Source: Escherichia phage Barry
Direction: 5' to 3' (one strand)
Sequence record: LR880803
DNA length: 64,000 nt
Positions 1,257-6,511 of the stretch are shown one piece after another. Made by a program: the position numbers and the translations under genes. How positions within the stretch are numbered: the first letter of the stretch is position 1; every line of letters starts with the position of its first letter. Under the pieces are notes generated by a model. That model was given only the letters and a program-made list of their open reading frames with translations, searched no databases and had not been told where the DNA came from.

Positions 1257-1333
1257 CTCTGTTTAGCTCAGATTGGTAGAGCGTTCCGTTTGGGGCGGTA
1301 AGGCCGGAGGTTCAAGTCCTCCAACAGAGACCA
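1257..1333 (+). tRNA. tRNA-Pro (anticodon TGG)
   Basis: Acceptor ctctgtt/aacagag, D-arm GCTCAGATTGGTAGAGC, anticodon loop ttTGGgg, T-arm GGAGGTTCAAGTCCTCC, CCA encoded. Confidence 0.75.
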
Positions 1334-1340
1334 AATTAAT

Positions 1341-1418
1341 GTTCCAGTAGACAAAATGGTATAGTCACCACTCTTTCAAAGTGGATATCTGAGGGTTCAA
1401 ATCCCTTCTGGAACGCCA
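1341..1418 (+). tRNA. tRNA-Glu (anticodon TTC)
   Basis: Acceptor gttccag/ctggaac, anticodon stem ccact/agtgg with loop ctTTCaa, T-arm GAGGGTTCAAATCCCTT, CCA encoded. Confidence 0.75.
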
Positions 1419-1425
1419 GTTTTGA

Positions 1426-1498
1426 CAGAAGACCAATTACAGCAAACTTAATCTTATTCATCTGAAGGTAAATCGGACAAAGAAGAGATTTGGTCTGG
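1426..1498 (+). ncRNA. repeat-family structured element A (stem agacca/tggtct enclosing conserved ACAGCAA motif)
   Basis: 5' cagaagacca and 3' tggtctgg can pair; attACAGCAAac follows the 5' arm; tRNA-sized but lacks D/T-arm signatures. Confidence 0.3.
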
Positions 1499-1510
1499 TC
1501 ATTAAGAATT

Positions 1511-1586
1511 GCGGGTATAGAGAAAGGGCGTCTCACATGTCTCATTAGCATGGTATCGGCAGGTTCGACTCCTGCACCCGCCTCCA
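1511..1586 (+). tRNA. tRNA with CAT anticodon (Met, Ile-lysidine or initiator type)
   Basis: Acceptor gcgggt/acccgc with a 1:72 mismatch, anticodon stem catgt/gcatg, loop ctCATta, T-arm GCAGGTTCGACTCCTGC, CCA encoded. Confidence 0.6.
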
Positions 1587-1592
1587 ATTTTG

Positions 1593-1653
1593 CAGAAGAC
1601 CGTATTCAGCAACAAAATACTTTTTTGCGGATAAAAGAAAAAACACGGTCTGG
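1593..1653 (+). ncRNA. repeat-family structured element B
   Basis: 5' cagaagaccg and 3' cggtctgg pair (agaccg/cggtct); motif tattCAGCAAcaaaa. Confidence 0.3.
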
Positions 1654-1664
1654 CAATGTATTAA

Positions 1665-1741
1665 GGTTAGGAAGCACATAAGGTATGTGCGGTCGCCTGT
1701 TAAGCGAATGGCACAGGGTTCGAATCCCTGACTAACCGCCA
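1665..1741 (+). tRNA. tRNA-Asn (anticodon GTT)
   Basis: Acceptor ggttag/ctaacc, D-stem gcac/gtgc, anticodon loop ctGTTaa, T-arm CAGGGTTCGAATCCCTG, CCA encoded. Confidence 0.7.
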
Positions 1742-1749
1742 AATTAAAT

Positions 1750-1837
1750 GTGTCGTTATCCCGTAGATGGTAGCGGTGGGGACTGTAAATCCCTTGTCAT
1801 TGAGACTCGGTAGGTTCGACTCCTACACGGCACACCA
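1750..1837 (+). tRNA. tRNA-Tyr (anticodon GTA), long variable arm
   Basis: 88 nt; acceptor gtgtcgt/acggcac, anticodon stem gggga/tccct with loop ctGTAaa, T-arm GTAGGTTCGACTCCTAC, CCA encoded. Confidence 0.7.
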
Positions 1838-1842
1838 ATAAA

Positions 1843-1919
1843 GGCTATGTAGTTTAACTGGAGAAAATACTCCCCTGTCACGGGAGATGATGTGAGTTCA
1901 AGTCTCATCGTAGCCGCCA
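1843..1919 (+). tRNA. tRNA-Asp (anticodon GTC)
   Basis: Acceptor ggctatg/cgtagcc, anticodon stem ctccc/gggag with loop ctGTCac, T-arm GTGAGTTCAAGTCTCAT, CCA encoded. Confidence 0.75.
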
Positions 1920-1980
1920 ATTTTGAGAGGGCTATTTAGCCCCTCCCTTAAAGAGTTCTTACGAGTATTCTTTAAGGGAG

Positions 1981-2054
1981 CAGAAGACCAAATACAGCAA
2001 GAATGTATGAAATTTCAAGCCAATTTAATTTTGAAAATTTAAAACTTGGTCTGG
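1981..2054 (+). ncRNA. repeat-family structured element C
   Basis: 5' cagaagaccaa and 3' ttggtctgg pair over 7 bp; motif aatACAGCAAgaa. Confidence 0.3.
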
Positions 2055-2067
2055 CTCAACAAATTTA

Positions 2068-4574: not shown

Positions 4575-4593
4575 ATTTAAAGAGGCTATTTAG

Positions 4594-5151
4594 ATGAGAT
4601 ATTTGAAGTATGCTTCATGGATTTTCTTAGCTTTGTTAGAGCCATTTGCAGCAATCTTAGCAGTTATCTTAGCACCTTTTGTAGTTCCATTCTACAGTGA
4701 GAAGAAAGGACACTTACCTTTCGGGTTCAGATGGATGGAGACATATGACAACCCAATTGATGGTGATGAAGGTCACGTTAAAAGATGGGCTAATATTAGA
4801 TGGATTGGTAAACTAGGTGTCTACATGCAAAGAGTCGGATGGCTCTGGAGAAACAAAGCTTATAACTTCTCTTACCATGTATTAGGAAGAGATGTAAGAG
4901 ATGTTACTAAGTGGAAAGGTAATATCAACGTAAGTTCTGACCCCGAAGATAATCAGACAGGTTATCTCCTAATGTGGAACAGTAATGCTTGGGGATTATT
5001 CGCTTTTATCCCATCAATTAAAATCTTTGGTAAACAATTTTACTGGAGAATTTATATTGGATGGAAACTAAAAAGTGTTGTCCCAGAAGAAAGAGCATTC
5101 TCAAGGGAAAGAGTTATGTTGGCATTCTTTATTCATCCACTGAGAAAGTAA
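4594..5151 (+). CDS. hypothetical membrane protein inside the tRNA island
   Basis: ORF with SD aagagg upstream of ATG; hydrophobic N-terminus (WIFLALLEPFAAILAVILAPFVV). Confidence 0.5.
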   Translation: MRYLKYASWIFLALLEPFAAILAVILAPFVVPFYSEKKGHLPFGFRWMETYDNPIDGDEGHVKRWANIRWIGKLGVYMQRVGWLWRNKAYNFSYHVLGRDVRDVTKWKGNINVSSDPEDNQTGYLLMWNSNAWGLFAFIPSIKIFGKQFYWRIYIGWKLKSVVPEERAFSRERVMLAFFIHPLRK

Positions 5152-5159
5152 AGATTTAA

Positions 5160-5235
5160 AGGGGATTAGTTTACAAGGTTAAAACCTCGGTCTTTGAAAT
5201 CGAAGAAGTTGGTTCAATTCCAACATCCCCCGCCA
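5160..5235 (+). tRNA. tRNA-Gln (anticodon TTG)
   Basis: Acceptor aggggat/atccccc with a 1:72 mismatch, D-stem gttt/aaac, anticodon stem tcggt/atcga with loop ctTTGaa, T-arm GTTGGTTCAATTCCAAC, CCA encoded. Confidence 0.65.
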
Positions 5236-5237
5236 AT

Positions 5238-5316
5238 GCTCCATTACTCCAATTGGCAGAGAGGCCAGACTTAAAATCTGTGTTATGTATCGGTTCGAAT
5301 CCGATATGGAGTACCA
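5238..5316 (+). tRNA. tRNA-Leu (anticodon TAA), short variable arm
   Basis: 79 nt; acceptor gctccat/atggagt, anticodon stem caga/tctg with loop ctTAAaa, T-arm ATCGGTTCGAATCCGAT, A at discriminator, CCA encoded. Confidence 0.6.
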
Positions 5317-5321
5317 AATTT

Positions 5322-5397
5322 AGCGGTATAGCATAACTGGCAATGCAGCAGCCTCTGAAGCTGTCCTATTAAGGTTCAAATCCTTATGCCGCTGCCA
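5322..5397 (+). tRNA. tRNA-Gln (anticodon CTG)
   Basis: Acceptor agcggta/tgccgct, anticodon stem gcagc/gctgt with loop ctCTGaa, T-arm TAAGGTTCAAATCCTTA, CCA encoded. Confidence 0.65.
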
Positions 5398-5428
5398 CTT
5401 CTAAGGATTCTTGCGAGAGTCCTTAAAT

Positions 5429-5504
5429 GTGGCCTTATCATAAACGGTAATGACCCATGCTGTGAACATGGTCTATACGGGTTCAAATCCCGTAGGTCAC
5501 CCCA
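5429..5504 (+). tRNA. tRNA-His (anticodon GTG)
   Basis: Acceptor gtggcct/aggtcac, perfect anticodon stem ccatg/catgg with loop ctGTGaa, T-arm ACGGGTTCAAATCCCGT, CCA encoded. Confidence 0.7.
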
Positions 5505-5509
5505 ATTTA

Positions 5510-5586
5510 TAGTCCAAGTAGCTTATATGGTTAAAGCGCGTGTCTGAAAAACATGAGAAGAGGGTTCAAATCCCACTGGACTACCA
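5510..5586 (+). tRNA. tRNA-Phe (anticodon GAA), acceptor/T-stem register ambiguous
   Basis: D-stem gctt/aagc, anticodon stem cgtgt/acatg with loop ctGAAaa, T-loop GGGTTCAAATCCC; tagtcca/tggacta pair perfectly but leave no discriminator before CCA. Confidence 0.5.
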
Positions 5587-5602
5587 ATTTCAAAGGTGCT
5601 TA

Positions 5603-6337
5603 ATGAAAGAGATGACAGAACAAGGTAAGGAGATTTTTAATCTCTTAAAAACTGGTAAAGGGTTCTCTAACCCGCTTATTACTGGTGCAGCAGTTCTCGG
5701 TGGAACCGTAGCTGCTTCTACATCACTTGTAAGCTCTATTAGTTCTGTAACAGACCCTACAATGAAGGAGAAACTTGTTGCTGCTGGACTTACAACAGTC
5801 CTTCTAAACAGCTTTACAACAAGCCTTACAAGCACTACAGCAACTACTAAAACTCTGACAGACTACGGTCAAAAATCTATTGATGAGTTTTCATCACGTA
5901 TGCAGGTAGCAAAGGGGTATTCCAATGTTATGGGTGCAGCAGGAGAACAAGTTGGTTGTACACCATTCAGTGGTATCATGGGTGTTGCTACAGAGTATGG
6001 TCAAAAAGCTATTGACATGATGAACAGTACACTAGATAGTGTTAATGGTGTGTTAAGTGACTTACAAGATGCTATTGATAAGGGTCTTGATACTGTTTCT
6101 GATTTAGCTAACCAAGCTGTCAGTAAGATTAATGAAGGTATTTCAAAGATTACAGCTTATGCAGATGAAGTTGTGCAGATGATTGAAGAAGAAGCTGCCC
6201 TTATTGCAGAGTACCTTAAAACGAATATCAATGGGTTCTTAGCAGGTATCTTACCAGACTGGTTTGACGATGCTTGTAAAACTGGTGTGATTGACACTAT
6301 TGCAACACCAGAAATGAAGAGCGCATTACAGAAATAA
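5603..6337 (+). CDS. hypothetical protein (Thr/Ser-rich N-terminal half, alpha-helical C-terminal half)
   Basis: ATG at 5603 with SD aaaggtg; the track start at 5540 overlaps tRNA-Phe and is rejected. Confidence 0.5.
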   Translation: MKEMTEQGKEIFNLLKTGKGFSNPLITGAAVLGGTVAASTSLVSSISSVTDPTMKEKLVAAGLTTVLLNSFTTSLTSTTATTKTLTDYGQKSIDEFSSRMQVAKGYSNVMGAAGEQVGCTPFSGIMGVATEYGQKAIDMMNSTLDSVNGVLSDLQDAIDKGLDTVSDLANQAVSKINEGISKITAYADEVVQMIEEEAALIAEYLKTNINGFLAGILPDWFDDACKTGVIDTIATPEMKSALQK

Positions 6338-6338
6338 T

Positions 6339-6431
6339 GGAAGATTAACCCTAAAAGGTAAGGGAGCAGTTTGCTAAACTGCCAGTAGCTGAGAAATCGG
6401 TGTACCAGTTCAAGTCTGGTATCTTCCTCCA
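6339..6431 (+). tRNA. tRNA-Ser (anticodon GCT), long variable arm
   Basis: 93 nt; perfect acceptor ggaagat/atcttcc, perfect anticodon stem gcagt/actgc with loop ttGCTaa, long variable arm, T-arm ACCAGTTCAAGTCTGGT, CCA encoded. Confidence 0.75.
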
Positions 6432-6435
6432 ATTT

Positions 6436-6511
6436 GAATCCGTGACAGAAATGGATATGTGCCTGTCTGCAAAACAGGTTTATAAGGGTTCGAGTCCCTT
6501 CGGATTCTCCA
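6436..6511 (+). tRNA. tRNA-Cys (anticodon GCA)
   Basis: Perfect acceptor gaatccg/cggattc, perfect anticodon stem cctgt/acagg with loop ctGCAaa, T-arm AAGGGTTCGAGTCCCTT, CCA encoded. Confidence 0.75.

Follow-up and report, generated by a model that had tools for sequence, protein, structure and literature searches.

How complete is the tRNA gene set carried by Escherichia phage Barry, and what else is encoded between its genes? The array in question occupies positions 1257-6511 of the window, by which we mean the whole 64,000-nucleotide (nt) stretch of sequence record LR880803 that was analysed, and an earlier note, made from the letters alone, had read it as 27 tRNA genes covering all 20 amino acids. 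The region is very probably the conserved tRNA array of a Felix O1-like myovirus (Ounavirinae, Felixounavirus), composed of 26 canonical CCA-encoding genes in five blocks and one non-canonical tRNA-Trp gene, providing a host-dependent codon top-up and accompanied by a Ro60-Y-RNA-like module. The 26-gene array itself is ordinary and already known, because such arrays have been published for Felix O1-like phages; what is new, on comparative evidence, is the non-canonical Trp gene and the family of Y-RNA-like elements. On balance, we lean towards the view that the arrays of Felix O1-like and several unrelated tRNA-rich phages embed an undescribed Y-RNA-like family (with a terminal stem, the motif UACAGCAA and long members carrying a permuted tRNA-like domain) that would partner a DUF2828-type homologue of Ro60, and that they also hide a tRNA-Trp for the 20th amino acid, marked by an invariant 6-nt insertion. 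If this is true, Ro60-Y RNA ribonucleoproteins would be linked to phage tRNA supply and to anti-defence.

When used as a query, positions 1000-7000 are 99.9% identical to Escherichia phage vB_Eco_Tribble (Felixounavirus), the record of which annotates the same 26 tRNAs. The match between the window and Tribble is exact from 1209 to 8000, and the part of the window upstream of about 1209 diverges from Tribble by about 5%; therefore, the genome is a mosaic. The query region is matched by 365 phage records in all, and for 227 of these the match spans 80% or more of it. The same array is present in Felix O1 and, as identified with ARAGORN, in 27 scanned Ounavirinae loci from IMG/VR, with 21-26 genes in conserved order in complete loci and fewer in the two loci where the array is cut (L011 and L019). 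Clustered and co-oriented tRNA genes, with small open reading frames (ORFs) and homing endonucleases interspersed, are also a feature of T4 and T5, lytic phages more AT-rich than their host, and the T4 cluster additionally holds small stable RNAs of unknown function. T4 has eight tRNAs, several of them without encoded CCA. Compared with T4, the present set is larger, encodes CCA in every canonical gene and has a Ro60-like gene attached. Among Felix O1-like phages, 22 tRNAs were described in Felix O1, together with a discussion of codon usage (PMC3185647), 23 in wV8 (PMC2674420), 17-23 in Salmonella felixounaviruses, and 26, recognising 19 amino acids, in Sf14 (PMC12482277). The window shares with the arrays of Felix O1, wV8, Moogle, Sf14 and Bas63 the genes, their order and spacing, as well as the flanks (the Ro60-like gene upstream and terminase downstream), but differs from these relatives in that its Trp gene ends with CUA rather than CCA and its Ro60-like gene is frameshifted.

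ARAGORN detected 26 tRNA genes, all on the plus strand between 1257 and 6511, and no others across the window:

1257-1919, plus strand: tRNA block 1 with Pro-UGG (1257-1333), Glu-UUC (1341-1418), CAU-1 (1510-1586), Asn-GUU (1665-1741), Tyr-GUA (1750-1837) and Asp-GUC (1843-1919); ARAGORN, CCA ends, same genes in 27 related loci.
2350-2906, plus strand: tRNA block 2 with Lys-UUU (2350-2425), CAU-2 (2430-2506), Ile-GAU (2508-2583) and Arg-UCU (2830-2906); ARAGORN and Rfam.
3145-3231, plus strand: tRNA-Ser-UGA with a long variable arm; ARAGORN, in Rfam a sub-threshold match to tRNA-Sec only.
3838-4574, plus strand: tRNA block 3 with Leu-UAG, Lys-CUU, Ala-UGC, Gly-UCC, Thr-UGU, Val-UAC, Leu-CAA and Arg-ACG; ARAGORN, Rfam and CCA ends.
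5160-5586, plus strand: tRNA block 4 with Gln-UUG, Leu-UAA, Gln-CUG, His-GUG and Phe-GAA; ARAGORN, Rfam and structures.
6339-6511, plus strand: tRNA block 5 with Ser-GCU (6339-6431) and Cys-GCA (6436-6511); ARAGORN and Rfam.

This list agrees gene for gene, in coordinates and anticodons, with the set that the earlier note had drawn up by eye, Trp excepted. Automated prediction thus recovers 26 of the claimed 27 genes rather than far fewer, and the remark that almost all of them encode CCA proved to be exact: all 26 genes called by ARAGORN do, the sole exception being the Trp-like gene. The claim of all 20 amino acids stands for the 19 covered by these 26 genes, and extends to the 20th only if the non-canonical Trp gene is functional. 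The gathering score of Rfam family RF00005 was passed by 23 of the 26 genes; Tyr (1750) and Ser-UGA (3145) gave a sub-threshold match to the tRNA-Sec model only, and CAU-1 had no significant Rfam match. tRNA-Ala carries G3:U70, and the discriminator bases of the array tRNAs agree with the E. coli rules.

The 27th gene was resolved by comparative analysis:

3049-3131, plus strand: non-canonical tRNA-Trp-like gene, with anticodon CCA at 3089-3091 and discriminator G at 3128, followed by CUA.

It has an acceptor stem AUGGGAC/GUCCCAU, a D stem G(A)CUC/GAGC with a bulged A, an A26-U44 pair, an anticodon stem ACGG(C)/(A)CCGU with the loop CUCCAAA, a 5-nt variable loop and a T stem (A)GGGG/CCUC(C) with the loop UUCAACU. 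The acceptor and D stems are joined by the 8-nt connector GAUGUUAA instead of the usual 2 nt. ARAGORN does not call the gene at default settings, and its relaxed settings (ps, ps80 and ps70) give no correct call and many false positives, with the gene appearing at ps80 only as a mis-parsed 'tRNA-???'. It is not called by Rfam either (23 bits to tRNA-Sec, E = 0.57). Once six connector nucleotides are removed in silico, ARAGORN calls a 77-nt tRNA-Trp(CCA). Thus, detectors overlook the gene because of the invariant 6-nt insertion between its acceptor and D stems. The element was found in 235 phage records; of 45 records sampled, almost none carries an annotation at this place. Neither the Trp gene nor the spacer RNAs described below are listed in any published account or sampled GenBank record, the supplementary phage tables of Chen et al. 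2014 being outside that check.

In an alignment of 14 distinct variants, including that of Pectobacterium phage Wc4-1, 99.3% of stem cells are paired, double changes are seen in 8 of the 20 stem pairs, and all four stems show compensatory changes. None of 500 shuffles reached this pairing together with the double changes, and controls in which the partner strand was slid gave 30-49% pairing and 0-1 double changes. The connector, the CCA anticodon, U33 and A37 are invariant across the variants. The identity set of E. coli tryptophanyl-tRNA synthetase (TrpRS) comprises the anticodon CCA, G73 and A1-U72, all of which are present in the Trp-like gene. Compared with E. coli tRNA-Trp, the gene has the same CUCCAAA loop, A1-U72, G73, 5-nt variable loop and a canonical T loop, but differs in its 8-nt rather than 2-nt connector, the bulged A of the D stem, the C31:A39 and A49:C65 mismatches and the absence of CCA in the window. 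It ends with GCUA in the window and in Tribble, and with GCCA in all other sampled records; the host CCA-adding enzyme could repair this 3' end only after trimming. In two related loci (L010, 10156-10226, and L016, 10162-10232) the allele with the 6-nt insertion is replaced by a different, 71-nt tRNA-Trp(CCA) allele with a reduced D arm, located at the same locus and preceded by the same promoter-like sequence. Judging by the covariation, the Trp-like gene is a genuine, selected variant of tRNA-Trp, and it may be charged and used in translation. Since the literature gives these phages 19 amino acids, a conserved and covarying tRNA-Trp would complete the set, and its 6-nt insertion would make it a natural probe of the distortion that TrpRS, EF-Tu and the ribosome can tolerate.

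The spacers at the beginning of the array contain four unannotated paralogous elements, hereafter E1-E4:

1421-1503, plus strand: E1, short, with the inner stem AGACCAA/UUGGUCU followed by the motif UUACAGCAA; covariance model 38.4 bits, E = 1.4e-6.
1588-1658, plus strand: E2, short; covariance model 42.6 bits, E = 1.3e-7.
1976-2059, plus strand: E3, short; stem-motif architecture.
2063-2204, plus strand: E4, long and YrlA-like, with a terminal stem, UUUACAGCAA, a V hairpin, a T arm, an acceptor-like hairpin, UG and a D arm.

All four are built of an outer stem, an AGA/G internal loop and an inner stem AGACC.../...GGUCU, with the motif WWWCAGCAA directly after the 5' strand. The additional parts of E4 are a T arm (GAAGG-UUCGAUU-CCUUC), a closed hairpin (ACUCGGC-AGAU-GUCGAGU) and a D arm (GUGU-AAUGGUA-GCAC), and their order corresponds to a tRNA in which the anticodon stem is the point of permutation. 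The T and D arms of E4 do not vary among relatives, and the 7-base-pair acceptor-like hairpin comes in three unrelated, fully paired sequences. The outer stems covary as well, as exemplified by E2, with UUGC/GCAA in the window and UUAC/GUAA in Felix O1. The number of copies is four in almost all complete related loci and three in a few. E1-E4 start 330-970 nt downstream of the Ro60-like gene, on the same strand:

1-1091, plus strand: 3' three-quarters of the Ro60-like gene, with Pfam domains DUF2828 and DUF7788/vWA; corresponds to Felix O1 gp42 and Bas63 gp130.

The relationship of this protein to Ro60 emerges only from profile and fold comparison: a plain sequence search of PDB found nothing, a PDB profile search gave a Ro60 match at E = 1.1, and in Pfam there is no match to TROVE, with DUF2828 and DUF7788 the only families found. 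In the AlphaFold2 model of the Felix O1 orthologue (predicted local distance difference test score 89), the protein has a HEAT-repeat ring and a vWA fold. A Foldseek search of the model against PDB returned Ro60, Rsr or phage Ro60, including that of Thermus phage phiLo, as all of the top 11 hits (E-values of 3e-8 to 1e-6, TM scores of 0.41-0.65). On the evidence of the model, the upstream gene is a structural homologue of Ro60. A 2024 preprint came to the same structural conclusion for Bas63 gp130, reported that it acts against the Ppl defence, and offered the guess that there might be Y RNAs among the annotated tRNAs (PMC11482910).

As deduced from their position and structure, E1-E4 would bind the adjacent Ro60-like protein. 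They resemble the YrlA/YrlB Y RNAs (Chen et al. 2014, PMC4201824; phiLo, PMC12135203) in lying about 1 kb or less from a Ro60 homologue, in the same orientation and in several paralogues, and in having a terminal stem between the 5' and 3' ends with an internal loop; in E4, the likeness extends to a V hairpin followed by T and D arms around a variable 7-base-pair acceptor-like hairpin. They differ from YrlA/YrlB in being interleaved with tRNA genes, and their candidate partner is a Ro60 homologue of the DUF2828 type rather than an annotated TROVE protein.

The same motif and architecture recur in five lineages, namely, Yersinia phage P778, Vibrio phage phi-pp2 and the uncultured L035/L037, L050 and L051, next to tRNA arrays and to DUF2828 Ro60-like genes that lie on the same strand. 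Several long members with textbook T and D arms are found in L050 and L051. Moreover, a covariance model built from Ounavirinae E4 alone produced full-length matches in L050 and L051 (E-values of 5e-12 to 1e-10) and weaker ones in P778 and L035/L037; 150 kb of E. coli yielded no match at E ≤ 1. The matches of a strict permuted-tRNA scan over 332 kb were restricted to these sites, and the motif is 19-fold denser beside Ro-like genes, the loci counted being partly non-independent. A loose scan for the motif plus any 6-base-pair stem failed to separate the window from shuffled sequences or from E. coli; because it was undiscriminating, we adopted a stricter motif, zone statistics, the strict permuted-tRNA scan and the covariance model. 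The candidate RNAs that would partner the Ro60-like protein are now mapped with base precision in five lineages, and the hypothesis can thus be tested directly. Furthermore, standard tRNA and Rfam pipelines miss both the Trp-like gene and E1-E4, and spacers in phage tRNA arrays therefore merit a second look.

Several observations speak against this interpretation of the locus. The Trp-like gene breaks a defining dimension of tRNAs, the 2-nt connector, and lacks CCA in the window. Three of the 26 canonical tRNAs are atypical: CAU-1, with U37, is not recognised by Rfam, G-1 is missing from His, and tRNAscan-SE labels Tyr as 'pseudo' in Felix O1. In a Bas63 knockout screen on four laboratory hosts, the tRNA genes were mostly non-essential (PMC11482910). 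Promoter-like sites in the array are no commoner than in shuffled sequence. As for the Y-RNA-like elements, the covariance model does not recover E3 at E ≤ 1, and no Rfam match to Y_RNA or YrlA-type families was obtained in 1400-2350. The published 5' motif GNCGAAN0-1G (or CGAA), which contacts Ro60, is absent from E1-E4, which instead have RC-A-GAAG-RCC and then WWWCAGCAA; since both this motif and an Rfam match are absent, we filed the elements as Y-RNA-like and not as YrlA. The Ro60-like gene of the window is frameshifted by a 1-nt deletion, with a run of five A at 233-237 where Tribble and Felix O1 have six, which reflects a sequencing mistake or else a true inactivation of the gene. Finally, a counter-example is provided by the distant contig L052 (2511-3149), in which a Ro60-like gene has neither tRNAs nor Y-like elements nearby. 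As a separate observation, the gene upstream of the Ro60-like gene in L052 encodes a PF01171 (TilS-like ATP-binding) protein.

What the tRNA set may do for the phage was approached through codon usage. The comparison proposed in the earlier note was run on 70 long ORFs (17,873 codons) taken from the window and 102 long ORFs from three regions of E. coli MG1655. The GC content of third codon positions is 0.32 in the phage ORFs and 0.58 in those of E. coli. Under conservative wobble rules the set reads 51 of the 61 sense codons, accounting for 91.5% of phage usage; given U34 reading whole four-codon boxes, it reads 59 of them, or 99.7%, and the two unreadable codons, AUA (2.8 per 1000) and CGG, are almost unused by the phage. 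Codons that are Watson-Crick cognates of the phage anticodons are enriched relative to the host (Mann-Whitney p = 0.03), AGA 10-fold, ACA 4.4-fold, AAG 3.2-fold, UCA 2.8-fold and CUA 2.5-fold. The commonest Gly codon of the phage, GGU (46 per 1000), needs the host tRNA-Gly(GCC) unless UCC superwobbles. The first anticodon base is U in 12 genes, G in eight, C in six and A in one. Accordingly, the notion that the anticodons favour A/U-ending codons is borne out in four-codon boxes and NNR pairs, where bacteria can choose, but not elsewhere, given the eight G, the six C and the presence in the set of C34 tRNAs for Lys, Gln and Leu. The substantial independence from the host tRNA pool that had been suggested is likewise upheld only in part: the coverage of 91.5-99.7% and the enrichment of cognate codons agree with it, whereas the need for GGU decoding, the non-canonical Trp, the mostly dispensable tRNA genes of Bas63 and the fact that charging, modification and processing are host functions do not.

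In the scheme that we propose, host RNA polymerase would start at several sigma-70-like promoters to transcribe the array, the transcripts would be cut into tRNAs by RNase P and 3' exonucleases of the host, and host enzymes would charge and modify these tRNAs. The set would then act as a minimal decoder in which a single U34 tRNA serves each four-codon box. Most probably, it would top up rare host tRNAs in late expression, because the cognate codons (AGA, ACA, AAG, UCA, CUA, GUA and CCA) are far commoner in the phage than in E. coli. Presumably, the array could also serve as a spare pool upon depletion of host tRNAs.

A serious, if not the favoured, possibility is that the main selective value of the array lies in evasion of defence, with the phage's own tRNA copies replacing those cut by host anticodon nucleases or by retron and toxin effectors, a role that is compatible with codon supplementation. 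Such a function is described for T5-like and other phages (PMC10264068, PMC11555353), and it would fit a set that is near-complete and not restricted to rare codons. CAU-1, in addition, is like an initiator in its acceptor stem but divergent in its anticodon stem-loop, and initiator tRNA is cut by enteric VapC, as cited in the Sf14 study (PMC12482277); the neighbouring Ro60-like gene, for its part, counters the Ppl defence in Bas63 (PMC11482910). However, the Sf14 study saw few differences in anticodon loops from the host and deemed nuclease resistance unlikely (PMC12482277), and the Lys, Tyr and Arg loops of the window agree with those of E. coli. We retain codon top-up as the more probable main role.

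With respect to E1-E4, the question is whether they are Y RNAs at all or rather processing spacers or scars, such as remnants of dimeric tRNAs, RNase sites or the tRNA-like half of a two-piece transfer-messenger RNA (tmRNA). The elements do sit between tRNAs, and tandem tRNAs can mimic YrlA, as Chen et al. warned (PMC4201824). Besides, ARAGORN fused E4 of Moogle to a downstream tag as a 'permuted tmRNA', and ssrA is reported in the Moogle genome paper. This tag belongs to a conserved segment of the array:

2641-2829, plus strand: tmRNA-like mRNA-domain segment; sub-threshold match to Rfam RF00023, ARAGORN tmRNA call in the related locus L023, and conservation.

The two acceptor-like strands of E4 pair and covary with each other, unlike what would be expected of tandem-tRNA remnants, and in phi-pp2 and L035 the elements adjoin the Ro60-like gene instead of lying inside the tRNA block. 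The proposal that E4 is the tRNA-like half of a two-piece tmRNA was rejected: E4 has no G3:U70 alanine identity, it has a terminal stem of its own, and some 470 nt, with three tRNA genes and a promoter-like site among them, separate it from the tag. Accordingly, an origin of E1-E4 as spacers or scars appears unlikely, and we continue to regard them as Y-RNA-like.

The tmRNA-like segment is kept in all related loci, with synonymous changes in the tag and a covarying hairpin downstream. The tag frame GCA AAC GAC ... encodes ANDNVFLAVA at 2677-2706 and is followed by the stops UGA UAG at 2707-2712; its first codons are identical to those of enterobacterial ssrA, and the 'ssrA' call of ARAGORN in Moogle rests on this segment. 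The likeness to tmRNA (ssrA, including its two-piece permuted form) consists in the GCA AAC GAC start after an A-rich stretch, the two stops and the resemblance of ANDNVFLAVA to ANDENYALAA. Unlike tmRNA, the segment is only about 190 nt long, contains no tRNA-like domain (acceptor stem, T arm, G3:U70 or CCA) and scores far below the gathering threshold of RF00023 (12-15.7 bits against 47, over model positions 56-294).

Could several of the 27 genes be decaying pseudogenes or passengers of homing endonucleases, such that the functional set would be much smaller? This we consider very unlikely. It is true that tRNAscan-SE tags Tyr and His as 'pseudo' in Felix O1 (PMC3185647), that HNH endonuclease genes interrupt the arrays of relatives, that Arg-UCU, Asp, Tyr and Lys are absent from some genomes and that the Trp-like gene has lost its CCA in the window. 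However, every gene is conserved across genera, both in its sequence and in its place in the order, the stem substitutions are compensatory (among the canonical tRNAs this was examined for CAU-1 and CAU-2), CCA and canonical loops are kept in all 26 canonical genes, and the change from CCA to CUA is the only one private to the window and Tribble. An equally doubtful proposal is that some annotated tRNAs are the Y RNAs of the Ro60-like protein, as put forward for Bas63 (PMC11482910), and that the Trp-like RNA is a Ro60 ligand or decoy: the atypical CAU-1 and the invariant extra 6 nt of the Trp-like RNA, a putative binding site, would agree with it, but the Y-RNA architecture belongs to the unannotated spacer elements E1-E4 and not to the annotated tRNAs, the WWWCAGCAA motif is absent from the Trp-like RNA, and the latter keeps the CUCCAAA loop, A1-U72, G73 and, in relatives, CCA, as a charged tRNA would.

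Several canonical tRNAs have unusual features. CAU-1 has a 1:72 mismatch in every relative (U1:C72 or C1:C72), followed by G2-C71 and C3-G70, so that its acceptor strand (U/C)GCGGG is like that of E. coli metZ, and its T stem shows compensatory changes among relatives. Its anticodon stem is CAUGU/GCAUG, with the loop CUCAUUA and U37, and has no three consecutive G-C pairs at its base; because these pairs are absent, we call CAU-1 initiator-like and have not filed it as an initiator. CAU-2 is probably an elongator tRNA-Met. An Ile2 (lysidine) role was considered for CAU-2 and judged unnecessary, mainly since AUA is nearly unused by the phage. Comparison with E. coli metT, metZ and ileX did not settle the identity of either CAU tRNA, with 42-50 identical positions each. 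The three tRNA-Leu genes (3838-3914, 4416-4493 and 5238-5316) are 77-79 nt long, with short variable loops and A73 in all three; in bacterial tRNA-Leu, a long variable arm is normal. tRNA-His (5429-5504) has G1-C72 and C73 and no encoded G-1, position -1 being U in 26 of 27 loci and A in one. The missing G-1 may be the cause of the pseudogene label that tRNAscan-SE gives to tRNA-His in Felix O1.

The remaining features of the region are promoter-like sites, identified by consensus match only, and ORFs located between the tRNA blocks:

2599-2627, plus strand: best sigma-70-like promoter match in the array, TTGACA-17-TATAGT, preceding the tmRNA-like segment.
1110-1138, 1201-1230 and 3017-3045: other promoter-like sites.
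3255-3596, plus strand: ORF of 113 amino acids of the PD-(D/E)XK endonuclease family (PDDEXK_5, E = 3e-17), between Ser-UGA and Leu-UAG; unannotated in Tribble.
4594-5151, plus strand: DUF7338 ORF (Pfam), putative membrane protein.
5603-6337, plus strand: DUF7217 ORF (Pfam).

In relatives, HNH endonucleases occur at different places in the array. Immediately 5' of tRNA blocks (1945-1978, 2790-2829, 3760-3837, 4244-4339 and 5398-5428) there are repeated hairpins of the type CUUUAAGGG...CCUUAAAG, which may be processing or terminator signals. The long hairpin in the Thr-Val intergenic region folds better than shuffled sequences (z = -3.3).

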